From an uncultured archaeon (GTDB lineage: Archaea; Aenigmatarchaeota; Aenigmatarchaeia; Aenigmatarchaeales; DAIDAN01), in contig CAZJGC010000003.1 in assembly GCA_964545795.1 (NCBI GenBank), positions 738 to 64,737 of the forward strand: DNA of 64,000 bases, written 5' to 3'. The translations under genes were made by a program, and so were the position numbers. The first letter of the stretch is position 1. The number at the start of each line of letters is the position of its first letter. This document shows, piece by piece, positions 4,066-37,285 of the stretch. The notes under the pieces are model-generated. The model had not been told where the DNA came from, ran no database searches, and was given only the letters and a program-made list of their open reading frames with translations.

Positions 4066-4113
4066 TATAACACCTTTATATTTTTATTCATATTTCACAA
4101 CATATTCACATGA

Positions 4114-4136
4114 ACCCCTTTGTTTCCTATGGAACT
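4114..4136 (-). promoter_or_regulatory. origin recognition box (ORB-A) with G-string
   Basis: Minus-strand read GTTCCATAGGAAACAAAGGGGT. It matches the archaeal ORB consensus (TTCCA-nn-GGAAAC-GAA-GGGGT) at nearly every position. Confidence 0.55.
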
Positions 4137-4174
4137 TCACGTATAAGTATTATTGATTATACGTTAATCACGTT

Positions 4175-4197
4175 ACCCCTTCATTTCCTATGGAAAA
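4175..4197 (-). promoter_or_regulatory. origin recognition box (ORB-B) with G-string, direct repeat of ORB-A
   Basis: Minus-strand read TTTTCCATAGGAAATGAAGGGGT. Overlaps the last codons of the PAP2 ORF. Confidence 0.55.
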
Positions 4198-4654
4198 TTG
4201 CACGTGAATATTTTGTGAACATTTTTATAACAACATCGCCTATAAAATAACCTAACACAGAACCTCCAACAACATCATACCATGTATGAAACCCTGTATA
4301 AACCCTGCCAAATGCCGTAATTAACCCTGCTATTAAACCAACAGCAAAAACAACCTTGTTCACGCGCATTATTCTTGTTTCACAGAATGCAAGTGAAGCA
4401 TGTGAACTTGGAAATGAAGGAGATTTTCCTAAACCATAAGGCCTTGGAATATTGAAAACCATTTTCAAAGCTTCCGAAACACCAAGAGCAACAAAAAATG
4501 CCAAAACAGATATCTTAGACTTCTGCTTGTCGCCTGTGAAATAAAAATATAACGGTATTATAAAAACCAACAGGAAGGGCAGGAAGGCGGATGCATAATA
4601 AACAGGTTCGCACAAAATCTGACCTGAGCATAAAAATTCATTCATAAAAACCAC
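4181..4654 (-). CDS. PAP2-family (type 2 phosphatidic acid phosphatase-like) membrane phosphatase
   Basis: KxxxxxxRP-like, PSSHA and YTGFHxxxDV motifs; multiple TM segments. Confidence 0.7.
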   Translation of the reverse strand: MVFMNEFLCSGQILCEPVYYASAFLPFLLVFIIPLYFYFTGDKQKSKISVLAFFVALGVSEALKMVFNIPRPYGLGKSPSFPSSHASLAFCETRIMRVNKVVFAVGLIAGLITAFGRVYTGFHTWYDVVGGSVLGYFIGDVVIKMFTKYSRAIFHRK

Positions 4655-4670
4655 ATTTTATAACACTGTT

Positions 4671-7304
4671 TTATATTTTAACAACTGTTCCAACATATCC
4701 GTCCTTCTCAAAATTCAGTTGCCCTCCGCATTCGGGGCACTTGCCAACAAGAGGAATTCTTCTGAAAGACCATTTGCATTTAATGCACGAAACAGCATCA
4801 AAACCCTCCAATATAGTCTCCTGAGCAGGTTTTGATGAAAAAACTTCAAAAAGACTCTTCTGTCTTGAACCTTCAAGAAGTTCAGCCTTATCCACGCCGC
4901 ATGCTTTAAAAATTCTCTCTATAGGAGGCAATATCTGGTTCTCTATATAATATTTTGAATCAATTTCAAGCCCCTTCTCTTTAACATATTCAGGGTCCTC
5001 TGCCCTTTTTGACAAGAGTTGGTTTCCCTTAATTATAACATAAGAAATTCTCTCTCCAACTGTTATGTTTCTTGTCGCATCTCTTGCATTTATCTTCTTT
5101 GCAAGCTCAACATGCGGTTGCACGCCGTCATAACTGTTCAGCGATTTGGTTATTCCTTTAACAATAGAAAGCTTTTCTAATGGTATTTTGCCTTCAGAAA
5201 GGCTTTTTATAACCTCTCTGACGTATTTAGACGCTTTTATTATATCTCCTTCCTTAAGAATTATATTTAATACGTTCATCATTGTTTCCCCTGTAAGTGA
5301 ACACCAATCCCTTCTAACAGTTTCTATTCCCTTCATTTCTATTTTATTTTCACCTTCTTCAAATTTCCAGCCCGCATATCGCTTCTTTGTAATAATAAGG
5401 AATGTTTTGTATGTTTTTTCAAATTTAAGGTTTAAAACTCCGGGCAATCTCTCTGAAACAAACTCAGAAATTTCTCTTCCTAACTTCTCTGCCTCCTCAA
5501 TATCAGATGTATTTGTTTCCACAAAAATAGAATCAGTATCGCCATAAACAACTCTTACAGGAAAATTCTCTTCAACCATTTTTTGCGTTTTCAGAATATT
5601 CTCCCTGCCATACGCCGTAACCGAGTTGGCAACATCCATAACATAAAGCCTTGCCCTTAAATAGCCTGTATAACCATATAAACTGTTAGCCATATCCTTT
5701 AAAGCCAACTGTTTTGCATTTAGCAATCTTTTTTCATCTCCTTCTGAAGATTTCATCCTTTTCTTAACAGCCGCGCGCGCTTCCATTAACTCCTTAAGAA
5801 CAGCTGGCAAAACCCCTTCCCTTACTTCAGGTTTCACAAATTTTACTCCCTGTGGGGTTGTGAAATGTTCAACATCATATTTATTATTAATAAGCAGAGT
5901 AGATGGGCATATATTGAATGTGCGTATTATGGACGGATATAGGCTTGTGAAATCAAGAACAACCACGCATTTATCTTTATACAACCCTGTAATGGGTTCA
6001 AGAACAATTGCGCCTTTAAGTCCTGCCTCCTCTCTTTCCTCTTTATATTTCATCAACTCGGCTGCTTCAGGTTTGCACGGCATTAGCATATTTCTCTTTC
6101 TAAATTCATGCAAAAGCCTGCACTCATGCCTCTGCGACTGTCCTCCTAAACTGTCCTGCAAAAGCAGACCTGATATTTTAGAAAGCTCAAAAAACTTGTC
6201 AATAAGGTTTTTTTCAATAACAAGAGCCAAAGCAAGCTCGGAGTCAACGCGGCAATACTCAACAAATTTGTTTAAATCCGCTGTATCCCCATTCCATAAT
6301 TTTTTCATTTCCTTTGGTCCTCCTACTTCAATTTTTTTCTTTCCAAGCATAGCCTCCGCTATTGTCCCCAAATCATATCTTTTAAATTTAACCCATGGAT
6401 CTCTTTTTATTATCTCATAAGGGTCAACAATAATGCGTCCTGATACAGAACACATATAACTGTTTTGCAGTTTTCTGCAGACAGAAGGCTTGCTTGACCT
6501 GCCAAAAGAACTGGAAACCCCAAGAACTTCCATTCTCTTTACAATATAAGGCAAATCAAAGTTGTTAATGTTATAACCTACTATAATATCAGGGTCAAAA
6601 GACTCTATTATATCGCTAAACTTTTCCAGCATCTGTTTTTCATCAGAACATATTATTGCATTGCCGTTCATACACTGCTTGCTAATAAGAACAGTTGTTT
6701 TTTTGCCGTTAAAATCAGGATAAAAAGCCATGCTTATCATGATTATCGGGTCTTTTTCAAAATCAGGCATTCTGTCATCGCTCTCAGATATGCATTCAAT
6801 ATCAAAACTAACATAACGCAGGGGCGCGTTCCCTTCTTTTTCTATTGTTCTTACTTTGTCTGCATCTATAGCCCTGCATTTTACGGTTTTCGTAAATGCT
6901 GGAGAACCTTCAATTTCAACCCATGACATTCCCCATAAATCATAATCAACCATAAACCTGTACTTAAAAAGAATGTCAGCCTCATAAACAGTTCCATAAG
7001 GTTTTAATCTCTCCTTTATTTCAGGTATTTTTCCCGGGTCTTTGCCCGTAATTTTCAAAACCTGTTTGGACTCATTATAACCAATTGGTATTATTTTTTT
7101 CTCAACATTTATAGAAACATTATAATCTTTTAACACTTCGCGTATTTTATCAGTGTCCTGAGAATCTATATAACAGTACGGAAGGAAATTCTTAAAGAAA
7201 GCGCATACTGTTTCTCCTTGTTCTGTTTTTCCAAAAAGCCTTACCAAAGGCTTTCCATTAAGCATAACATAATCACAATCAAGAATCTGCATTGCAACTC
7301 TCAT
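4671..7304 (-). CDS. polB: family-B DNA polymerase (PolB) with C-terminal zinc ribbon
   Basis: Exo motif FDIE, YGDTDS polymerase motif, K-x3-NS-x-YG motif, and C-terminal Cys4 ribbon (CIKCKW...CPECGG). At 877 aa there is no room for an intein. Confidence 0.95.
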   Translation of the reverse strand: MRVAMQILDCDYVMLNGKPLVRLFGKTEQGETVCAFFKNFLPYCYIDSQDTDKIREVLKDYNVSINVEKKIIPIGYNESKQVLKITGKDPGKIPEIKERLKPYGTVYEADILFKYRFMVDYDLWGMSWVEIEGSPAFTKTVKCRAIDADKVRTIEKEGNAPLRYVSFDIECISESDDRMPDFEKDPIIMISMAFYPDFNGKKTTVLISKQCMNGNAIICSDEKQMLEKFSDIIESFDPDIIVGYNINNFDLPYIVKRMEVLGVSSSFGRSSKPSVCRKLQNSYMCSVSGRIIVDPYEIIKRDPWVKFKRYDLGTIAEAMLGKKKIEVGGPKEMKKLWNGDTADLNKFVEYCRVDSELALALVIEKNLIDKFFELSKISGLLLQDSLGGQSQRHECRLLHEFRKRNMLMPCKPEAAELMKYKEEREEAGLKGAIVLEPITGLYKDKCVVVLDFTSLYPSIIRTFNICPSTLLINNKYDVEHFTTPQGVKFVKPEVREGVLPAVLKELMEARAAVKKRMKSSEGDEKRLLNAKQLALKDMANSLYGYTGYLRARLYVMDVANSVTAYGRENILKTQKMVEENFPVRVVYGDTDSIFVETNTSDIEEAEKLGREISEFVSERLPGVLNLKFEKTYKTFLIITKKRYAGWKFEEGENKIEMKGIETVRRDWCSLTGETMMNVLNIILKEGDIIKASKYVREVIKSLSEGKIPLEKLSIVKGITKSLNSYDGVQPHVELAKKINARDATRNITVGERISYVIIKGNQLLSKRAEDPEYVKEKGLEIDSKYYIENQILPPIERIFKACGVDKAELLEGSRQKSLFEVFSSKPAQETILEGFDAVSCIKCKWSFRRIPLVGKCPECGGQLNFEKDGYVGTVVKI

Positions 7305-8213: not shown

Positions 8214-9401
8214 TTAGTACAAAACCTCGCAAAGAACTTTCTTCATTTTCTCTTTGACAGTGTCGTCAACCATAAGATTTATTATTTTTGTGCGCCCATA
8301 TCTTCCTCTTGAAACATTTTTTGTGCTTATTATTCCAAACATATCAAGTTCAGATATAAGGTCTGAAACTCTTCTTTGAGTCAAAGGTTTTAACCCATAC
8401 TTCACGCAGTTTTTCTGATACTCTGAAAGAACATCTCCTGTAAGAACTTCTTTATTGTTTTCCAGCAAATCCAATATGGTCTGCATAACAATTTGGCTTT
8501 GTTTTGGCTGCGTCTTTACAATTTCAACAAATTTGTCAACATTTATTTTCTCTTCTGCTGAATCAACATGTTTTATTGTTACTTTCCTGCTTCCAGAACG
8601 CTCGGCAATCTCTCCTGCAACGCGGAGCAGATCCAAAGCCCGCCTTGCATCCCCATGCTCCTGTGCAGCAAGCGCAGCGCACTTCTCTATAACACCTTCT
8701 TCTATAACTCCTTCCGAAAAAGCAATTTCAGCCCTCTGCCTCAATATATCCTTTATCTGCGAAGCATTGTATGGAGGAAAAATAAGTTCTTCCTCAGAAA
8801 GAGATGATTTAATTCTTGTATCAAGAGTATTTACAAAACTAAGGTTGTTTGTTATTCCTATCAAACATATTTTTGCATTTTTCAATTCCTGATTTATTCT
8901 TGTCAGATTATAAATAATTTCATCTCCTGTCTTCTGCACAAGAGCATCTATTTCATCAATTATTAAAATCAAAATCTGTTTTTCAGAATCTATAACATCA
9001 AGAAATATTTTATATATCCTGTCAGTAGGAAGTCCTGTAAAAGGAACTTCTTTTCCAAGTTCTTTTAGTATTGTTGCCAATACCCTGTATTCTGTGTCTG
9101 CCACTTTTTTAAGTTTGCAGTTTATATAAACAGATTTTACTTTAAATTTCCTACTAGTTTCAATAAGTTTTTTTGTAACATAACATGAAATCAATGATTT
9201 CCCTGTTCCTGTTCTACCATAAATAAAAACATTGCTTGGTTTTGAACCAACAAGGGCAGGTGCCAAAATTTTGCCAAGTTCCTCTATCTGTTTTTCCCTA
9301 TGCAATATTTTACCAGGAACAAAACAAACAGAAAGAGCATCCCTGTCATTAAATAAACATTGAGATTGTATAAAATCATTAAATATTTTTTCCAAACTCA
9401 T
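8214..9401 (-). CDS. cdc6: Orc1/Cdc6 replication initiator
   Basis: AAA+ Walker A (GRTGTGKS) and Walker B (LILIIDEIDAL) with C-terminal winged helix; lies next to an AT-rich ORB-bearing region. Confidence 0.95.
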   Translation of the reverse strand: MSLEKIFNDFIQSQCLFNDRDALSVCFVPGKILHREKQIEELGKILAPALVGSKPSNVFIYGRTGTGKSLISCYVTKKLIETSRKFKVKSVYINCKLKKVADTEYRVLATILKELGKEVPFTGLPTDRIYKIFLDVIDSEKQILILIIDEIDALVQKTGDEIIYNLTRINQELKNAKICLIGITNNLSFVNTLDTRIKSSLSEEELIFPPYNASQIKDILRQRAEIAFSEGVIEEGVIEKCAALAAQEHGDARRALDLLRVAGEIAERSGSRKVTIKHVDSAEEKINVDKFVEIVKTQPKQSQIVMQTILDLLENNKEVLTGDVLSEYQKNCVKYGLKPLTQRRVSDLISELDMFGIISTKNVSRGRYGRTKIINLMVDDTVKEKMKKVLCEVLY

Positions 9402-9438
9402 TTTATTACAATGGAAATAAAGGTATTTATATTTTTAT

Positions 9439-9464
9439 AACCTTTTTTTCCTATGGAAATTCAC
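9439..9464 (-). promoter_or_regulatory. ORB element 1 of oriC (mini-ORB dyad, weak G-string)
   Basis: AACCTTTTTTTCCTATGGAAATTCAC; same dyad core as ORB-A and ORB-B. Confidence 0.5.
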
Positions 9465-9623
9465 TAAAATACAGTGACACACCCTTTCTTTTCCTTTAGA
9501 AACATTTTTAGAAATTAAATAAGTAATAAAAATTATTATATTAACTTTTCAGTAATAATTTTCATATAAATATAACATTGTTATATACTATATTTAATTT
9601 AAAAATAAATTATAAATAACAAA

Positions 9624-9649
9624 TTTCTATAAGAAATGATAGGGGGTCT
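9624..9649 (+). promoter_or_regulatory. ORB element 2 of oriC (degenerate dyad plus GGGGGT G-string), inverted relative to ORB-1
   Basis: TTTCTATAAGAAATGATAGGGGGTCT aligns 16/21 with the ORB-B reverse complement. Confidence 0.45.
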
Positions 9650-9667
9650 AAAATAATAATTATAAAT

Positions 9668-13674: not shown

Positions 13675-14724
13675 TTGATGGGTGTTGCTATGAAGAAAAT
13701 ATTAAAGGCTCTTGTTGAGGCGCAATCTGTAACAGGAAGAGAAAACAATGTAAGAAACATTATGAAAAAAGAGTTTGAGAAATCATGCGATTCGGTTGAA
13801 GTAAATAAAATGGGAAATATTATAGCAAAAAAAGGCAAAGGCAAAATAAAACTGATGTTTGTTTCTCATATGGATGAAGTTGGCCTGATGGTGAAATATG
13901 TAACAGAAAACGGGTTTCTTAGATTTGATCCTCTTGGCGGAATAGACCAGCGTTCTCTTCTTGCCCAAAAAGTTCGCGTGTATGCTGACAATGGCAAAGT
14001 GTTTGTTGGAGTTATAGGAAGCAAGCCAATTCATATTCAGGAAAGAGAAGAGCAGGAGAAGGTTATAAAAATGAAGAGGCTTTTTATTGATGTTGGCGCA
14101 GGAAGCAGAAAAGAAGTTGAGAAAATGGGAATTAAGCCCGGTGCATTTGTTGGTTTGTACAGGGAGTTTTCAGAACTTGCAGACAATAAAGTTACTGGAA
14201 ACGGATTGGATAACAGGGCAGGTTGCGCAGTGTTAATAGAATTAATGAAAAGAGTGAAGCCGAAAAACTGCACAATATATGCTGTTGGTTCTGTGCAGGA
14301 AGAAAAGGGATTGATAGGAGCAAGAGGCACAATATTTCAGATAAATCCTGATGTAGTAATTGGCGTTGATACAACTATAGCAGGAGATACTCCTGAGATT
14401 GAGGAGGCGGACGCGCCTGTTAAAATAGGAGAAGGGCCTGTTATAGTTTTAATGGACGGATATTCTGTTATACATCCTTCAGTAAAGAAATGGATTATGG
14501 AAACTGCAGAAAGAAATAAAATAAAGTATCAATTTGAATTGTCTCCAAATGCTGGAATGGATTCTTCTGTGGCGGCAATAATAAGGGAAGGCATTCCGGC
14601 AGCAGGAATAGCAGTGCCTACAAGGTATCTGCATACAGGAGTTGAAGTTTTAAGCATGAAAGATTTGGAAAGCGTTGCAGGTTTGCTGGAGCATATAGTT
14701 AAAACAGTTGACAAATATTTTTAG
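13675..14724 (+). CDS. M42-family (TET/FrvX-like) aminopeptidase
   Basis: SHMDEVG, DNRAGC and EEKGL(I)GA motifs. Confidence 0.8.
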   Translation: MMGVAMKKILKALVEAQSVTGRENNVRNIMKKEFEKSCDSVEVNKMGNIIAKKGKGKIKLMFVSHMDEVGLMVKYVTENGFLRFDPLGGIDQRSLLAQKVRVYADNGKVFVGVIGSKPIHIQEREEQEKVIKMKRLFIDVGAGSRKEVEKMGIKPGAFVGLYREFSELADNKVTGNGLDNRAGCAVLIELMKRVKPKNCTIYAVGSVQEEKGLIGARGTIFQINPDVVIGVDTTIAGDTPEIEEADAPVKIGEGPVIVLMDGYSVIHPSVKKWIMETAERNKIKYQFELSPNAGMDSSVAAIIREGIPAAGIAVPTRYLHTGVEVLSMKDLESVAGLLEHIVKTVDKYF

Positions 14725-22365: not shown

Positions 22366-22702
22366 TAGAATCAGCTATTATTTCAAGCCTGTTTTTATAG
22401 ATATTTACTTTTCCTTTTACTTTAATATAATCTCCTTTTTTAATGTTAAAATGATTTTTAAAGGCAACAACAAGTATTTCTGATGCATTGTCTGCTATAT
22501 TAATAAACATATTTCCTGATTTTTCATAGACAGAATTAACATAACCATACGTGATGATTTTGTCTCCTGACATGGATTTTTTTATGTCTGATATTTTTAC
22601 TGCTTTCACTTCCATTGTTTGTGTTATAAAAACTATTAATAATATTCCAATAACAGAGGCGAATATAGAGAGTTTAAGCAGTGTTTCATCTCTCATGTTC
22701 AC
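22352..22702 (-). CDS. membrane-anchored OB-fold (tRNA_anti-like) protein
   Basis: N-terminal TM, then OB-fold pattern (YVNSVYEKSGNMFINIADNASEILVVAF...GDYIKVKGKV). Confidence 0.5.
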   Translation of the reverse strand: MNMRDETLLKLSIFASVIGILLIVFITQTMEVKAVKISDIKKSMSGDKIITYGYVNSVYEKSGNMFINIADNASEILVVAFKNHFNIKKGDYIKVKGKVNIYKNRLEIIADSINRS

Positions 22703-22709
22703 ACCATGT

Positions 22710-23243
22710 TCACGTTAATTTCACGCTGTAAATTTTCTCATATACAGAACCATCTTTGGTAAGCGTTGATTTAAATAGTGAAATTTCTGACACAATTAAT
22801 ATTCCAAAATCCGTATTTTTGAATTTCTCCAGAATTTCTTTTATGTTGTGGTTTGCTGATTTAACTCTTGCTAGTGTTATGTGGGGTGCATGATTTTTCT
22901 CCTTTTCAAAACCTAATTCTTTAAGTTTGTTGTCAATTGCAACTGCTATATCATAAAATGTTTTGCTTTCAGCGCCTGCCCATACAACGCGTATGTAATT
23001 GTTGTTTGGAAAACAACCAATTCCTTTTATATTCATTTGAAATTTTTTGAATTTAGAGCATGTGTTTTTGATTATGTTTTTTATTTGTGTAATTTTGTTT
23101 TCATTGACATTGCCAAGGAATTTCAGTGTAATATGGAGGTTCTCCTGCGGCACAATCTTTATATCTCCTTCTAATTTGCGTTGTATATCTCTTAGTTTCA
23201 GTTTCAATGATTTATCCAAATCAATAGCAATAAAGCATCTCAT
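22710..23243 (-). CDS. thpR: RNA 2',3'-cyclic phosphodiesterase (2H family, ThpR/LigT)
   Basis: Two H-x-T-x motifs (HITLKF and HITLAR). Confidence 0.85.
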   Translation of the reverse strand: MRCFIAIDLDKSLKLKLRDIQRKLEGDIKIVPQENLHITLKFLGNVNENKITQIKNIIKNTCSKFKKFQMNIKGIGCFPNNNYIRVVWAGAESKTFYDIAVAIDNKLKELGFEKEKNHAPHITLARVKSANHNIKEILEKFKNTDFGILIVSEISLFKSTLTKDGSVYEKIYSVKLT

Positions 23244-23372
23244 TTTAAGAATATGTGTTTAACATATATTTAATATTATATAATTGCTTAAATATTATTA
23301 TTGTTATTGTTATAAATAAACATATTAAAATTTATTTTCAGACATTTTAAAAAACTTGCGAGTAGTGATTTT

Positions 23373-25691
23373 ATGAAAGCTGTAGTTAACGGTATTAATA
23401 AAAAAATAATAGAGGATTTTTCTATATCTGATAAAAGAAGCATAAATTTCTGGATATCAAGGTTGGAGAAATATTCAAAAAGCAAAGTTGTTTCTGCCTG
23501 TTTAAAGGTTGGTGTTGACAGGGAAATTGCTGAAGAAATAGCAGACAATGTTGACAGGTACTGCGATGAAAGTATGAAAATGTCTGAAGTAAGGCCTTTA
23601 ATATTTGCGTTTCTGAGCAAAAAAGATGCTGCTGCGGCAAGGAGATTCAGGGCAGGAGAAATATATGTAAGGACATCATCAGAAAACTATGAAAAATTTG
23701 ACAGAAGAAAAATTGTGAAATCTTTGTTAAGAGAAACAGCTATAAGCGAAAAAGACGCTGAATATATATCAGTTGAGACAGAAAAATTTATACGTGCGGC
23801 AAATCTGGATTACATATCTTCGTCTCTTCTAAGGGAGATAGTTAATATAAAACTTCTTGAGTATGGTTTTGAGGACATACATTCTGATTATACAAGAATA
23901 GGAAAGCCTGTTTATGATATAACACAATTAATAAACATAGGAGACAATGAAAATGCAAATTTGCAGTATAATCCAGAAACAATACATAAGCTTATAGCCG
24001 ATAATGTTTTGCGCGAATATGCGCTTACAAAAGCAGTGCCAAGGCATGCTGCAGATGCCCATCTGCGCGGCATAATACATATTCATGACATGGATTACTT
24101 TGTTCTTCGTCCCTTCTGTTTTTCGCATGATTTGCGTTTCTTTCTAAAAAATGGCTATAAGGCAGATGGTCAAGGAATACATACAGCAGCAGCAGGTCCT
24201 GCAAAACATGCTTCTGTTGCTATACTTCATGCAGCCAAAATATTGGCAAGCGCTCAGACAAACTGCGGAGGAGGTCAGGGATTCAACTGGTTTAATGTGC
24301 TGCTTGCTCCATATTTGAAAGGAATGAATTACAAACAAATGAAACAAATGGCTCAAATGTTTCTTTTTGAGATGTCGCAAATGTATGTGGCAAGAGGCGG
24401 ACAGACAGTTTTCTCTTCAATAAACATAGAGCCGGGAGTTCCTAAGGTTCTTGAAGATGTGCCTGCTGTTCTTCCCGGAGGCGTTACAGGGAAAGACACT
24501 TATGCAGATTATTATGATGAAATAAACCAGTTTTTCAGGGCTTTTATAGATGTTTACACTGAAGGAGACGCTTATGGAAAGTTGTTTAATTTTCCAAAAT
24601 GCGAGGTTAAAGTTTCAAAGAAGGACTTTTCCAAACATAGAGAAGAAATGGAGATGGTGTCAAAACTTGCTGCAAAGTTCGGAACTCCGTATTATTTCAT
24701 ACAACAGGATTATATGCCGGAATACAGTTGTTATCAGTGTTGCGCATATCTTATGCCCTTGAGCGAGCAGAATACTGATAATGATCTGTATAATGGAACA
24801 ACGCGCGGCGGAGCTTTGCAGGTAGTTACAATAAACCTGCCAAGAATAGGTTATGATGCAAAAGGGGATGATGATAAGTTATATGAATTGTTAAGAGAAA
24901 GAATGAATATAGCAAAGGATGTTTTGCTTGCAAAGAGGGAAATAATAAAAAAGAGAATGAAACAGGGATTGTTGCCGTTCTTGTCTCAAAGCATAGATGA
25001 TAAAGGAACCCCATATCTTGTTGTAGACAAACAGAGTTTGGAGATAGGCATGGTTGGTTTGAATGAAATGCTTCAGGCGCATACAGGTCATGAACTGCAT
25101 GAGGGTGTTTTGGAATTTGGTCTTAAATTTATTAAGAAAATGACTGATATAGCAAGGGAATTCTCTGAAGAAACAGGCCTTAAATTTGTTGTTTCAAGAA
25201 CTCCTGCAGAGTCAGCGGCTTATAGATTGGCTTCTCTTGACATGAAAGAGTATAATGGAAAGGCTATTGTTCAAGGTGACAAAGAAAAGAAGTCTGTATA
25301 TTATACAAATGGCAACCATGTTCGCCCGTCTGCTGACGTGCCTCTTATAGAGAGAGTTAAAATAGAAGCATCTTTCTCGCCTTTGCTTATGGGAGGGACA
25401 ATGTCCCATATATGGCTTGGCGAAGCAAACCCCAGCGCAGAGGCTCTTACAAAGTTTACTGAGAATATAACAAAGAAGACGCTTATGGGATACTTTGCAT
25501 ATACAAAGGATATGACTGTATGCAAAAACTGCATGTTTGTGGCTCCCAACATGCTTAAAACTTGTCCTAAGTGCAATAGCAGCAATGTAGACTGGTATTC
25601 AAGAATAACAGGGTATTATCAGAAAGTATCAGGCTGGAATGCAGGAAAATTGCAGGAACTCTATGACAGGCGCAGATATACTGTTTCATAA
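23373..25691 (+). CDS. nrdD: anaerobic ribonucleoside-triphosphate reductase (class III RNR)
   Basis: C-terminal glycyl-radical region SRITGYYQKV, preceded by a Cys4 zinc ribbon (CKNCMF...CPKCNS); 772 aa. Confidence 0.85.
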   Translation: MKAVVNGINKKIIEDFSISDKRSINFWISRLEKYSKSKVVSACLKVGVDREIAEEIADNVDRYCDESMKMSEVRPLIFAFLSKKDAAAARRFRAGEIYVRTSSENYEKFDRRKIVKSLLRETAISEKDAEYISVETEKFIRAANLDYISSSLLREIVNIKLLEYGFEDIHSDYTRIGKPVYDITQLINIGDNENANLQYNPETIHKLIADNVLREYALTKAVPRHAADAHLRGIIHIHDMDYFVLRPFCFSHDLRFFLKNGYKADGQGIHTAAAGPAKHASVAILHAAKILASAQTNCGGGQGFNWFNVLLAPYLKGMNYKQMKQMAQMFLFEMSQMYVARGGQTVFSSINIEPGVPKVLEDVPAVLPGGVTGKDTYADYYDEINQFFRAFIDVYTEGDAYGKLFNFPKCEVKVSKKDFSKHREEMEMVSKLAAKFGTPYYFIQQDYMPEYSCYQCCAYLMPLSEQNTDNDLYNGTTRGGALQVVTINLPRIGYDAKGDDDKLYELLRERMNIAKDVLLAKREIIKKRMKQGLLPFLSQSIDDKGTPYLVVDKQSLEIGMVGLNEMLQAHTGHELHEGVLEFGLKFIKKMTDIAREFSEETGLKFVVSRTPAESAAYRLASLDMKEYNGKAIVQGDKEKKSVYYTNGNHVRPSADVPLIERVKIEASFSPLLMGGTMSHIWLGEANPSAEALTKFTENITKKTLMGYFAYTKDMTVCKNCMFVAPNMLKTCPKCNSSNVDWYSRITGYYQKVSGWNAGKLQELYDRRRYTVS

Positions 25692-25697
25692 GGGCAT

Positions 25698-25745
25698 GTG
25701 AACATGTGAACAACACGTGAACATAACGTGAAATTTGACGTGAAG
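25698..25745 (+). repeat. iteron-like array: 5 direct GTGAA(C) repeats at 8-12-bp spacing
   Basis: catGTGAACatGTGAACaacacGTGAACataacGTGAAAtttgacGTGAAG, immediately after the nrdD stop codon. Confidence 0.85.
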
Positions 25746-25791
25746 TAAAACTTTAAAAGTTTGTATTTTCATAATTTAGAAAGGTGATAGA

Positions 25792-26061
25792 ATGGGTAAG
25801 ATAACAATATTTACTTCAAAGACATGCACAAAATGCCCCCAAGCCAAAGCAATTGTTGAGGATGTTGCTAAAGAGATCGGGTGCGAAGTTGAATATGTTG
25901 ATATTGAAAAAGAGCTTTTTAGGGCTCTTGAAAATCAGATAGCCACTGTACCTTCTGTTATGGTTAATGGAATTATTGTATCAAGAGGGGAAATACCTAA
26001 AAAAGAGGATATATTATCAGTTCTTAATGGAAGTGAATGTTCACGTGAACAAAAAGAATAA
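25792..26061 (+). CDS. glutaredoxin-like/NrdH-like redoxin
   Basis: Thioredoxin fold with a CTKC active-site motif. The C-terminal codons (SREQKE) are encoded by the first GTGAA repeats of the next array. Confidence 0.55.
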   Translation: MGKITIFTSKTCTKCPQAKAIVEDVAKEIGCEVEYVDIEKELFRALENQIATVPSVMVNGIIVSRGEIPKKEDILSVLNGSECSREQKE

Positions 26062-26144
26062 TTGTGAACAAAATGTGAACAACACGTGAACTTAATATAA
26101 ACTTCACGTGAACTTGTGAATATTCACGTGAAGGTGTCGTGAAA
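26033..26144 (+). repeat. iteron-like array: 9-10 direct GTGAA(C/T/G/A) repeats phased at 11 (or 22) bp, including the 12-bp palindrome GTTCACGTGAAC
   Basis: Repeat starts at 26033, 26045, 26064, 26075, 26086, 26108, 26117, 26128 and 26139. The array sits between the NrdH-like gene and nrdG. Confidence 0.85.
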
Positions 26145-26863
26145 TGGAACATAAAAAATTAAAGATTGGCGGAATACTAGATATTTCTACAATAGATTAT
26201 CCAGGCAAACTCACATCTGTTATTTTTCTTCATGGTTGTAATTTCAGATGTCCATTTTGTTTTAACCCTGAACTTGTGCTAGGAAAACCTTCACGTGAAC
26301 TTCACGTGAAAGAAATAATTGAGAAAATAAGTAATTTCAGGGATTTTATAGATGCGGTAGTTATTACTGGCGGAGAGCCTACGTTGCAACCTCTTGAATT
26401 TTTATGTAAAGAACTTAGAAAAATTGGATTATTTGTAAAGATAGATACGAATGGTTCAAATCCTGATGTTATAGAAAATTTAATAAGAAAGGGGTTGATA
26501 GATTTTGTCGCTCTTGATATAAAAGCGCCTTTTAGCAAATATTCACGCGTGATTGGCAATGTGCGTGAACAAGACGTGAACAATATTAAAAAAACATTTG
26601 AGATGCTTTTGAATTTTGATATAGATTATGAATGTAGAACTCCTGTTGTTCCAAACGTGAATATGCAGCACATGCAGGAACTTGCAGAAGATGTGAAGCC
26701 ATCAAAAGTTTTTGTTCTTGAACAATTTAAATGTGAAAAAGGCACTTTGTCAGGAATAAAAGGCAGCATATCTCGTGAAGAACTTGTGAAAATAGCAAAA
26801 ATGTTCTCAAACAAAACAGTAAAGATAAGAACAGCAGAATCAGGCGAGGAAGTGGTAGCGTGA
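26144..26863 (+). CDS. nrdG: anaerobic RNR activating protein (radical SAM)
   Basis: CNFRCPFC radical-SAM cluster near the N-terminus. It contains three in-frame 11-bp-phased GTGAA pairs (26295/26306, 26565/26576, 26775/26786). Confidence 0.75.
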   Translation: MEHKKLKIGGILDISTIDYPGKLTSVIFLHGCNFRCPFCFNPELVLGKPSRELHVKEIIEKISNFRDFIDAVVITGGEPTLQPLEFLCKELRKIGLFVKIDTNGSNPDVIENLIRKGLIDFVALDIKAPFSKYSRVIGNVREQDVNNIKKTFEMLLNFDIDYECRTPVVPNVNMQHMQELAEDVKPSKVFVLEQFKCEKGTLSGIKGSISREELVKIAKMFSNKTVKIRTAESGEEVVA

Positions 26864-26931
26864 ATATTCACGTGAACTTCATGTTTTGTTCATATAGAAA
26901 TATTTAAATATTATCATGTTCACGTGAACAT
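26860..26931 (+). repeat. GTGAA repeats plus the perfect 16-bp palindrome ATGTTCACGTGAACAT (26916-26931) in the promoter/start region of the ExeA-like ATPase gene
   Basis: GTGAAT at 26860, GTGAAC at 26872, and the palindrome at 26916-26931. The track's GTG start at 26924 lies inside the palindrome. Confidence 0.8.
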
Positions 26932-26932
26932 T

Positions 26933-28036
26933 ATGATAGAAGACAAATTTGATGACTATGAAGAAAGCGTGAAACAATGGTTTCTAAAATTAAACTGGAA
27001 TGAGAACCCATTTACATTTAAAATATCTCCTGATATGTTTACTGGTTATGAAGTTCAGATAAAAGCTATTTTAAAGCATATATCAGAACAGCATAAAATA
27101 GCCATTCTTACAGGACCTACTGGCGCAGGAAAGACAACTATGCTAAAATGGACAGAAGCAAAACTGAAAGATGATAAAATAAAAATGATGTATTTGTCAA
27201 AACCCCCTTCTGACCCAAGCGAATTTGTGCGGATATTCACTAACTTTTTTGGAAGAAGCATTATTGAGAGAATTTTTATGAAAGAGGTAACAATTTTTAA
27301 TTTAAGCGATTATATAAACAGAAAACTTGGCAGCAGACATCTTGTTCTTTTGGTTGATGAAGCGCATGAAACAAACAAAAATGTTCTTGAATGGTTGCGA
27401 ATTCTTGTTGACCAAATAGAGAATGTTTCAATGGTTCTTGCAGGGTTGCCTTTGCTTGAGGATAAAATAAAAAACAAACTTGAGACACTTGACCAGAGAA
27501 TTACCACAAGAATAAAACTCACATCTCTTAATATGGCAGAAACAAGAGAACTTATTAGGAGAAGAATAGAATCTGTTGGCGGCGAAGATATAAAACCGTT
27601 TACTGAAGAGTCTGTTTCGCAGATTTTCAGAAAGACAGGAGGGTTTCCAAGAGAGGTAATAAAGTTATGCGACAAACTTGTGAATGATGCAATAGAGAAG
27701 AATGTTTATGAAATAACTGCTGATAACATTTCTGAATATAAGGAAATAAGCGAAGAACCTGTTTCCAAGTCGGTTCAACCAAAATTCTCTTTGAAGGAAC
27801 TTCCATACAAACAGAGGAAAGTATTGGAAATATTGTCTGATAGCGATTGGCTTACTCCGTCAGAGGTTGCAGAAAGACTTGGCGGTTCTTATAAGTCTGA
27901 GTATCATGCAATCCGTTCCATGAACAATATTCTTAAGAGGCTTATGAAGTGCGGATTTGTAGAAAGAGAAACAAAAGGCAAAACATTTATCTATAAACTT
28001 ACACCAAAAATTAAAACACTTTTGGTGGAGGCGTGA
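26933..28036 (+). CDS. ExeA/GspA-like AAA+ ATPase (AAA_22-type) with C-terminal winged-helix domain
   Basis: NPFTFKISPDMF N-terminal ExeA-type motif, Walker A GPTGAGKTT, Walker B LLVDEAHE, and a C-terminal wH (LTPSEVAERLGG...GFVERETKGKTFIYKLT). The likely start is the ATG at 26933 rather than the track GTG at 26924. Confidence 0.55.
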   Translation: MIEDKFDDYEESVKQWFLKLNWNENPFTFKISPDMFTGYEVQIKAILKHISEQHKIAILTGPTGAGKTTMLKWTEAKLKDDKIKMMYLSKPPSDPSEFVRIFTNFFGRSIIERIFMKEVTIFNLSDYINRKLGSRHLVLLVDEAHETNKNVLEWLRILVDQIENVSMVLAGLPLLEDKIKNKLETLDQRITTRIKLTSLNMAETRELIRRRIESVGGEDIKPFTEESVSQIFRKTGGFPREVIKLCDKLVNDAIEKNVYEITADNISEYKEISEEPVSKSVQPKFSLKELPYKQRKVLEILSDSDWLTPSEVAERLGGSYKSEYHAIRSMNNILKRLMKCGFVERETKGKTFIYKLTPKIKTLLVEA

Positions 28037-36457: not shown

Positions 36458-37285
36458 ATGTTTATGTTTGTAATCAAAGCGTCAGGTAGGAGAGAAGAGT
36501 TTGACAAGGAAAAGATAAGAAGCACATGCAGAAGAGCAGGGGCTCCGGAATGGTTGGCTGATAAAATAGCGGACAGAATTGAAAAGAAGGTAAGGGACGG
36601 CATGAGAACAAAGGAAATATTAAAAATGACATTGCTTATGCTTGATAAGGAAATGCCGCATATTGCAGCAATGTATGACCTTAAAGGAGCTATAATGAGG
36701 CTTGGACCCGCAGGTTATGAATTTGAAAAGTTTGTATCGGAACTTCTGAAAAGATATGGATATAAAACAGTCACTAATGTTATTGTAAAAGGGAAGTGTG
36801 TATCTCATGAGGTTGATGTAATCAGTGAAAAAGGCAGTGAAAAAACCCTGATAGAGTGCAAATACCACAATTCTCTTGGAACATATACAGGCGTTCATGA
36901 AGTTCTTTACACAAAGGCAAGGTTTGATGATGTTATAAATAGTAAGGATAATAAAGATTTTACGAACTGCCAGATTGTATCAAATACAAGATTTTCTTCT
37001 GATGCAATAAAGTATGCCAAATGCATGAAAATAAAATTGTTAAGCTGGGATTATCCAAAAGAAAATATAAGAACCATGCTGGAAGACAAGAGGTTGTATC
37101 CCATAACAATTATAAAAAATTTAAGCAAATATGTGCAGGATAAACTTATTAGCAATGGCATAGTGTTTTGCATTGAATTGTTTGAAAACGATATATCAGA
37201 TTTGTCTTCTTACACGGGAATAAGCAAGAAGCGGCTTATTGAACTTAGGGAAGAAGCTGAAAAGATAATTTCAAAAAGTGATTGA
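36458..37285 (+). CDS. ATP-cone domain fused to an Mrr-type (PD-(D/E)XK) restriction-endonuclease-like domain
   Basis: N-terminal ATP-cone (VIKASGRREEFDKEKIRSTCRRAG). Central EFEKFVSELLKRYGY...HEVDVIS...ECKYH nuclease core. Confidence 0.55.
   Translation: MFMFVIKASGRREEFDKEKIRSTCRRAGAPEWLADKIADRIEKKVRDGMRTKEILKMTLLMLDKEMPHIAAMYDLKGAIMRLGPAGYEFEKFVSELLKRYGYKTVTNVIVKGKCVSHEVDVISEKGSEKTLIECKYHNSLGTYTGVHEVLYTKARFDDVINSKDNKDFTNCQIVSNTRFSSDAIKYAKCMKIKLLSWDYPKENIRTMLEDKRLYPITIIKNLSKYVQDKLISNGIVFCIELFENDISDLSSYTGISKKRLIELREEAEKIISKSD

Follow-up and report, generated by a model that had tools for sequence, protein, structure and literature searches.

GTGAA repeats within nrdG form part of an array adjoining an Orc1/Cdc6-like gene in an Aenigmatarchaeota genome

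The nrdG locus and its GTGAA array

The DNA analysed here, called the window throughout, is a stretch of 64,000 nucleotides from an uncultured archaeon of the Aenigmatarchaeota (GenBank assembly GCA_964545795.1, contig CAZJGC010000003.1, positions 738 to 64,737 of the forward strand). Four of its genes follow one another in one orientation, on the plus strand, and were identified by profile matches: nrdD, encoding a class III ribonucleotide reductase (RNR) with an ATP-cone (23373-25691); a gene for a thioredoxin-fold protein of the MJ0307/Thioredoxin_3 type with the motif CTKC (25792-26061), hereafter trx; nrdG, encoding the radical-SAM activase of the class III reductase (26144-26863); and a gene for an Orc1/Cdc6-like AAA+ ATPase with a C-terminal winged helix (26933-28036; Pfam AAA_22 and winged-helix matches), hereafter the Orc-like gene. 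A short repeat, GTGAA, recurs within nrdG and in the DNA on either side of it. We argue, from sequence comparison and structure prediction, that NrdG codons double as copies of an iteron and that the array to which they belong is probably an iteron or operator platform for the Orc-like protein.

NrdG is of the NrdG2 type. It matches Pfam Radical_SAM and also TIGR02495 with 195.5 bits (cutoff 131.15), residues 8-196 covering positions 1-193 of the 193 in the profile; the cysteines of its CxxxCxxC radical-SAM motif (C32, C36 and C39) are invariant in the protein alignment, and nrdD lies nearby. The latter gene is essentially free of the GTGAA motif, and its product has the ATP-cone only, without the NrdR ribbon. 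An AT-rich inverted repeat upstream of nrdD (ATATGTGTTTAACATAT, 23250-23300), in a spacer without GTGAA sites, may be a separate nrdD operator.

In what follows, a half-site is GTGAA or TTCAC, and a phased pair is GTGAA-N6-GTGAA, with a spacing of 11 bp. The original prediction, made from the sequence of the window, had described three such pairs inside nrdG encoding the similar heptapeptides SRELHVK, VREQDVN and SREELVK. The pairs are present (26295/26306, 26565/26576 and 26775/26786) and the peptides were read correctly; the coordinates given for them were one base too high, the codons lying at 26291-26311, 26561-26581 and 26771-26791. Site 1 (26290-26311, plus strand; codons S50-K56, SRELHVK) is a perfect double palindrome, TTCACGTGAACTTCACGTGAA, which spans 26290-26310. 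Site 2 (CGTGAACAAGACGTGAAC, 26561-26581, plus strand) provides codons V140-N146 (VREQDVN), and site 3 (TCTCGTGAAGAACTTGTGAAA, 26771-26791, plus strand) codons S210-K216 (SREELVK). Further single half-sites were located by a motif scan in the region 26542-26737 (TTCACG at 26542; GTGAA at 26657, 26693 and 26733), and nrdG carries 12-13 half-sites in all in its 720 bp.

The repeats continue beyond both ends of the gene. Block I of the array (25698-25744, plus strand), between the nrdD stop codon and the trx promoter, consists of five direct GTGAA half-sites with spacings of 8, 11, 11 and 12 bp. The 12 half-sites of block II (26033-26143), three TTCACGTGAA palindromes among them, overlap the C-terminal tail of Trx and reach the nrdG ATG. 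The end of the trx reading frame (...CSREQKE*) is read from TGTTCACGTGAAC and is thus repeat-encoded, as had been recognised in the original prediction. Block III (26860-26932) contains palindromes at 26867-26876 and 26919-26928, and the TGA stop codon of nrdG belongs to its half-site at 26860. The second of these palindromes lies between a TATA-like box (~26900-26912) and the ATG of the Orc-like gene, and the nrdG promoter region has the same arrangement of TATA-like box and palindrome. In the clade of the window, the array amounts to ~34 half-sites across 1.25 kb, with intergenic spacers of only 69-100 bp.

Half-sites reach a density of 30 in kilobase 26, versus ~1-2 per kb elsewhere in the window. 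The whole window contains 13 phased pairs and 7 TTCACGTGAA palindromes; second-order Markov simulations gave 0. A long-range 10.6-bp phasing of the plus-strand half-sites over 1.27 kb is only suggestive, its power of 8.4 being below the simulated 99.9th percentile of 10.5. An Rfam scan of 25000-27500 returned nothing relevant, and a known structured RNA in this region appears unlikely. A scan for bacterial-type promoters and terminators re-detected the array palindromes as hairpins; its models are bacterial and the host is an archaeon, hence the scan is uninformative.

The array and the Orc-like gene in related genomes

The same motif surrounds trx, nrdG and the AAA gene in five syntenic relatives (L081, L083, L084, L001 and L002). 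In more distant Aenigmatarchaeota (L085-L087), where the nrd genes are different or located elsewhere, 20-25 half-sites occupy 250-590 bp of non-coding DNA before the Orc-like gene. What is conserved is an array of ~20-35 half-sites directly upstream of this gene, non-coding and 0.25-1.1 kb long in most Aenigmatarchaeota, and the total of ~34 in the window clade matches the non-coding arrays of the other lineages. Three further loci (L096, L114 and L115) have nrdG adjoining the array; there, the array is confined to a spacer of ~450 bp, and 0-2 half-sites fall in nrdG.

Scanning metagenomes for the double palindrome recovered 57 loci, of which 32 contain the Orc-like gene, with the match a few hundred bp upstream of it; several more carry the flanking LigT and OB-fold genes. 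Upstream maps were made for 37 Orc-like loci. Consecutive half-sites on the same strand are 11 bp apart in 255 cases, and at any other distance in at most 29. Outside the arrays, the related loci contain 3 phased pairs in 204 kb. The succession of TATA-like box and palindrome before the Orc-like ATG recurs in L085 and L087. Genes for LigT, OB, Orc-like, kinase, PRC, RadA, RPA and histone proteins make up the synteny around the array, and the array has been kept together with the Orc-like protein over genomes ranging from 27 to 54% GC. About 15 of the 57 loci look unrelated and were not counted: they are ORF-poor (poor in open reading frames) satellite-like arrays or have a RING-finger gene, and include eukaryotic-looking or otherwise unrelated sequences (L089, L099, L113, L119, L120, L127, L131, L132 and L142). 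The 21-mer alone is therefore not diagnostic of the archaeal element.

The Orc-like protein is 52-71% identical across Aenigmatarchaeota, and its Walker A (GPTGAGKTT) and Walker B (DEAH) motifs are invariant. Its AlphaFold2 (AF2) model (mean predicted local distance difference test score, pLDDT, 88) comprises an AAA+ domain, a lid and a C-terminal winged helix, and the top Foldseek matches in the PDB are the archaeal Orc1/Cdc6 structures 1w5t, 2qby, 1fnn and 2v1u, over 380-400 columns. A sequence search of the PDB with the protein returned P-loop noise only. Aligned by hhalign with the canonical Orc1 that is also encoded in the window, its profile reached an E-value of 0.0045 over the AAA+ core only, too weak for homology beyond the core. 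In the mapped loci the Orc-like gene always stands beside the array, and no other DNA-binding gene is consistently adjacent.

The repeats could also be operators of an ordinary transcription factor other than the Orc-like protein, controlling trx, nrdG, the Orc-like gene and a few DNA-metabolism genes, in which case the copies inside nrdG would be auxiliary operators or roadblocks. Such a factor would fit the placing of palindromes directly beside TATA-like boxes at both nrdG and the Orc-like gene, the extra phased sites upstream of the OB-fold gene (22698-22724) and beside elements resembling the origin recognition box (ORB) at 4.1 kb, and a neighbourhood rich in replication and repair genes. 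However, 20-35 half-sites over 0.25-1.1 kb far exceed what an operator needs, and the 3 phased pairs found outside arrays give no sign of a broad regulon. Moreover, the array tracks the Orc-like gene and not the nrd genes, being present where the latter are absent or different, and the flanks offer no other DNA-binding gene with comparable regularity. We regard this explanation as unlikely, if a serious competitor.

Some further features were seen beside these arrays. In relatives, NrdR is encoded next to the block of LigT, OB, array and Orc-like gene (L085, 2179-2613; L087, 1-2254), either stand-alone or with its Zn-ribbon fused to NrdD. In L107 (5848-6198), L111 (574-924) and L109 (13352-13645), GTGAA arrays are flanked by a small winged-helix-like protein (~100-117 aa; motif ...PEG/PDG-LWLRKIAKK...), which may be another candidate binder or simply a neighbour. 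In L086, the last GTGAA palindrome and the TATA box before the Orc-like gene have an ORB-like palindrome, TTTCCATAGGAAAT (~4945-4965), between them. Such co-occurrence of an ORB-like palindrome with the GTGAA array is not general across 34 arrays, nor are the 34 related arrays enriched in the looser ORB core TTCCNNNGGAA, which gives no support for co-binding by canonical Orc1.

NrdG positions and selection on the nrdG DNA

According to the original prediction, the repeats had introduced three in-frame peptide insertions into NrdG, to be sought as lineage-specific residues in surface loops. We find no indel at residues 50-56, 140-146 or 210-216. None of the three sites shows a gap in protein alignments with 28-30 orthologues or in a codon alignment with the five syntenic relatives; NrdG has 239 aa and its relatives 238-250; and the pyruvate formate-lyase activating enzyme (PFL-AE) of E. 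coli aligns gap-free across site 1 (SRELHVKEI versus GKEVTVEDL). Nor do the heptapeptides lie in surface loops, the AF2 model (pLDDT 93) placing all three at helix N-termini: site 1 forms strand 51-54 and the start of helix 55-63, site 2 the N-terminus of helix 142-157, and site 3 that of helix 211-218. Among the motif columns, E52 never varies, E142 is conserved and S210-R211-E212 is kept across the family; the others are among the most variable. Relatives without the motif have [FY][KR]EM[ST]xE in the columns of site 1. At site 3 the residues are not lineage-specific, S-R-E being found throughout the family and encoded free of the motif in L081 (SRE, TCA AGA GAA) and, as TRE, in L083 (ACA CGA GAA); in L084, L001 and L002 the position reads TTCACGTGAAC. 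For this site the outcome is the one that the original prediction had named as refuting it. By these alignments, the three heptapeptides are ordinary NrdG positions, and not insertions.

Repeat-encoded peptides do exist at C-termini, where reading frames have short extensions into palindromes of the array, as in Trx here and in L083 and in NrdG of L081 (KCSREGNVK). In this respect the original prediction holds for the tails and fails for the internal nrdG sites, and the tail of Trx is a lineage-specific extension.

The heptapeptides are alike since GTGAA-N6-GTGAA leaves a single reading frame open. GTGAA contains TGA, and a G at codon position 3 closes the frame; with the G at position 1, the partner 11 bases downstream has its G at position 3, and the frame is again closed. 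The one that remains, nGT-GAA ... GTG-AAn, yields R-E-x-x-V-K/N when preceded by C, the base preferred 5' of the motif. The likeness of the peptides (x-R-E-x-x-V-K/N) follows from the DNA motif, and it is therefore no evidence of a common inserted module.

The original prediction had offered a second possibility, in which the coding sequence of nrdG keeps the binding sites in place. For putative sites, this is well supported by rare codons, by recoding, by conservation of the DNA and by absence from orthologues. CGT makes up 26 of the 815 arginine codons (3.2%) across 51 genes of the window, and it is CGT that encodes R51, R141 and R211 of NrdG and R85 of Trx; the remaining arginines of NrdG are encoded by AGA/AGG (6) and CGC (1). 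When the amino-acid sequence of NrdG was held fixed and 20,000 synonymous versions were generated from local codon usage, the recoded genes had on average 1.8 half-sites, 0.013 pairs and 0.017 palindromes, compared with 12, 4 and 2 observed (P <= 5e-5). Site 1 is identical to its counterpart in L081 at 20/21 nt and site 2 at 18/21, for a gene-wide third-position identity of 0.42. Among 81 nrdG orthologues outside the clade, pairs and palindromes number 0 and 0. Finally, nrdG has ~17 half-sites per kb; other genes of the window have at most 3.9 per kb, with the exception of a PAP2-family gene. The array is maintained across nrdG by the choice of rare codons together with amino-acid replacements at tolerant helix starts.

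The copies inside nrdG might be without function, having arisen by templated or quasi-palindrome mutagenesis or by short-tract conversion from the array and been tolerated by the protein. The turnover of site 3 between close relatives would be expected of such by-products, the sites fall on residues that are variable or already half-matched the motif, and the dense array nearby provides many templates. Against this, sites 1 and 2 have been kept to the degree given above despite near-saturated synonymous positions, rare CGT and GTG codons have been retained, and the total of ~34 half-sites matches that of the non-coding arrays of other lineages, all of which makes it improbable that the copies are mere by-products. 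Insertion of a short repeat unit three times in frame, yielding lineage-specific heptapeptides in surface loops, is refuted: the peptides are indeed similar and repeat-encoded, and reading frames do run into repeats at their C-termini, but the protein has no internal indel and a normal length, matches the NrdG2 profile end to end and aligns with PFL-AE without a gap at site 1, its three sites lie in confidently modelled regular secondary structure, and the single open frame forces the likeness. Insertions in a radical-SAM activase would, had they been real, have been an odd piece of protein evolution. Chance or composition, that is, a motif resulting from the amino-acid content or codon bias of nrdG, where Glu (GAA) and Val/Lys are common and the SRE of site 3 is family-conserved, has next to no credibility in view of the recoding result, the 0 pairs of the Markov simulations, the density of half-sites compared with every window gene but the PAP2 gene (14.8 per kb) and the 81 orthologues devoid of pairs and palindromes.

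Possible role of the array and comparison with known systems

Our preferred reading, that NrdG codons double as iteron copies in a platform for the Orc-like protein, can be put as follows. Point substitutions in ordinary NrdG codons have created copies of an 11-bp iteron, the core of which, (A)CGTGAA(C), frequently occurs in pairs that form the palindrome TTCACGTGAA; the motif is anchored on the invariant E52, the conserved E142 and S210-R211-E212, and otherwise falls in variable columns. In the window clade, trx and nrdG sit in the territory of the array and nrdG carries part of its sites, and the intragenic copies would preserve their number and continuity. The Orc-like protein would bind cooperatively to the direct repeats, with one repeat to each helical turn, and would also bind the palindromes next to the TATA boxes of nrdG and of the Orc-like gene. 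It would repress its own gene and also, in the window clade, the promoters of trx and nrdG, which are now within the array; the expression of both would there be coupled to array occupancy.

The window also encodes a canonical orc1/cdc6 (8214-9401, minus strand; profile matches to Cdc6_lid and Cdc6_C). Directly upstream of it, inverted ORB-like elements flank an AT-rich stretch (9402-9667): the element TTCCATAGGAAA (9447-9459) and an ORB-like element that includes a G-string (~9484-9502) are followed by ~120 bp of AT-rich DNA, beyond which lies the inverted ORB-like element TTTCTATAAGAAATGATAGGGGG at ~9624-9646. By its sequence, this region looks like a textbook archaeal oriC.

A number of observations weigh against a platform served by the Orc-like protein. 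With the canonical orc1/cdc6 and its ORB/AT-rich origin only ~16 kb away, the array is less likely to be the main origin. It has no ORB consensus, TTCCNNNGGAAA occurring in the window only at 4.1 kb and 9.45 kb, and GC and cumulative skew carry no origin signal at 26 kb, the skew tracking the coding strand only. The Orc-like protein scores only 23.8 bits against TIGR02928 (cutoff 181.3) and matches neither Cdc6_C nor Cdc6_lid, both of which the canonical copy has; RuvB comes close behind Orc1/Cdc6 in Foldseek, and the fold alone is not diagnostic. It is a candidate binder of the repeats by virtue of adjacency, fold and co-conservation. Arrays are thinner in L001, L002 and L084, with 13-15 half-sites. 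Lastly, the two closest relatives lack the DNA motif at site 3, and individual intragenic sites therefore turn over.

Both the protein that binds and the purpose of the platform, whether it would fire replication or only regulate transcription, are points that we infer. Regulation alone would be our first guess at the role, by less than even odds; an origin-like role is a slightly weaker candidate, a segregation-like one an outside chance, and the rest we leave to other functions. It is a tentative and on balance doubtful proposition that the GTGAA array and its Orc-like partner constitute an undescribed, phylum-wide chromosomal element for replication or segregation, distinct from the canonical ORB/Orc1 origin and located partly inside nrdG in one clade.

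The window also has outlying sites. Two GTGAA pairs, at 4094 (minus strand) and 4204 (plus strand), within the region 4094-4219, bracket two direct ORB-like elements at ~4111-4134 and ~4177-4196 (reverse complements TTCCATAGGAAACAAAGGGG and TTCCATAGGAAATGAAGGGG). The elements lie in a 115-bp spacer between an Asn-synthase-like gene and PAP2/PolB, and the region 4066-4220 is perhaps a second locus for Orc binding, or else a composite site. Beside the ORB-like pair, the PAP2-family gene (4181-4654, minus strand) has 7 half-sites in 474 bp (14.8 per kb). No further gene of the window comes near the density of nrdG, and the PAP2-family gene is thus a possible second case of sites in coding DNA. 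A triple TTCAC with exact 11-bp spacing (22698-22724, minus strand) occupies the junction between the LigT stop codon and the start of the OB-fold gene, ~3 kb from the main array, and is kept in L081 (1556-1582). Elsewhere in the window, an ORF at 36458-37285 (plus strand) has an ATP-cone at its N-terminus, the catalytic domain of an Mrr-type restriction endonuclease and an AF1548-like domain at its C-terminus, so that a nucleotide-sensing domain is fused, unusually, to a nuclease.

In literature searches on the motif and on origins of Aenigmatarchaeota, no description of this motif or of its pairing with such a protein came up, and we know of no replication or transcription control that has been characterised experimentally in this phylum. 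The conserved iteron array with its Orc-like partner is a more interesting object than the nrdG peptides, being an unstudied pairing, in DPANN archaea, of a highly conserved Orc1/Cdc6-like protein with an 11-bp iteron array. The nrdG gene offers a clean natural example of dual coding, in which a dense array of putative protein-binding sites runs across a coding gene. Should the array be an origin or a centromere-like element, it would represent a new initiator/site pair in archaea, and if the replication/segregation reading is true, each of these 21-bp stretches would be read in two ways, as codons and as a binding site for an initiator.

The nearest parallels are iteron origins with an autoregulated initiator, such as those of pPS10 RepA, F RepE and P1 RepA. 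As in these, a single half-site occurs in two forms: direct repeats in helical phase, and inverted repeats that overlap the promoter of an adjacent winged-helix, initiator-like gene, here the Orc-like gene. In contrast to iteron origins, it is chromosomal and vertically conserved, the adjacent protein is AAA+ and Orc-like, not Rep-like, and part of the array lies in a housekeeping gene. Archaeal oriC regions with ORB or mini-ORB elements are similar in that the array stands directly upstream of an AAA+/winged-helix gene, whose product has origin-DNA-bound Orc1/Cdc6 as its best structural matches; they differ in that the motif here is distinct from the ORB consensus, the Orc-like protein falls short of the Orc1/Cdc6 hidden Markov models and the canonical origin is separate. 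In Sulfolobus, Orc1/Cdc6 paralogues of the Orc1-2 type act as transcription regulators, and an Orc-like AAA+/winged-helix protein would likewise act here on promoters of DNA metabolism, although the motif and the family differ and one massive array takes the place of dispersed promoter sites.

Sites in coding DNA have precedents in DnaA-box clusters and in the parS site inside spo0J of B. subtilis, and DnaA controls nrdAB in E. coli. As with intragenic DnaA boxes and parS, putative chromosome-maintenance sites would be tolerated here in ORFs, constraining codon choice, and as with DnaA and nrdAB an initiator-type protein would have a link to RNR genes. The array and parS (TGTTNCACGTGAAACA) have the core TTCACGTGAA in common. 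A ParB/parS system was tried as a candidate and rejected: TGTTNCACGTGAAACA matches no array site at up to 3 mismatches, and a scan for the GERR motif, a weak test, revealed no ParB signature. Unlike in these bacterial systems, the host is an archaeon without DnaA, and 12 half-sites are packed into 720 bp with direct 11-bp phasing. NrdR boxes resemble the array in being phased, repeated sites at nrd genes, but the GTGAA array follows the Orc-like gene even in relatives that encode NrdR; an NrdR regulon was likewise rejected, a scan of the window giving one chance-level box match at 14270 and none near the nrd genes. Binding sites inside ORFs and links between initiators and RNR genes are thus already known, and by analogy the pairing of the GTGAA array with the Orc-like gene would be a variant of these.

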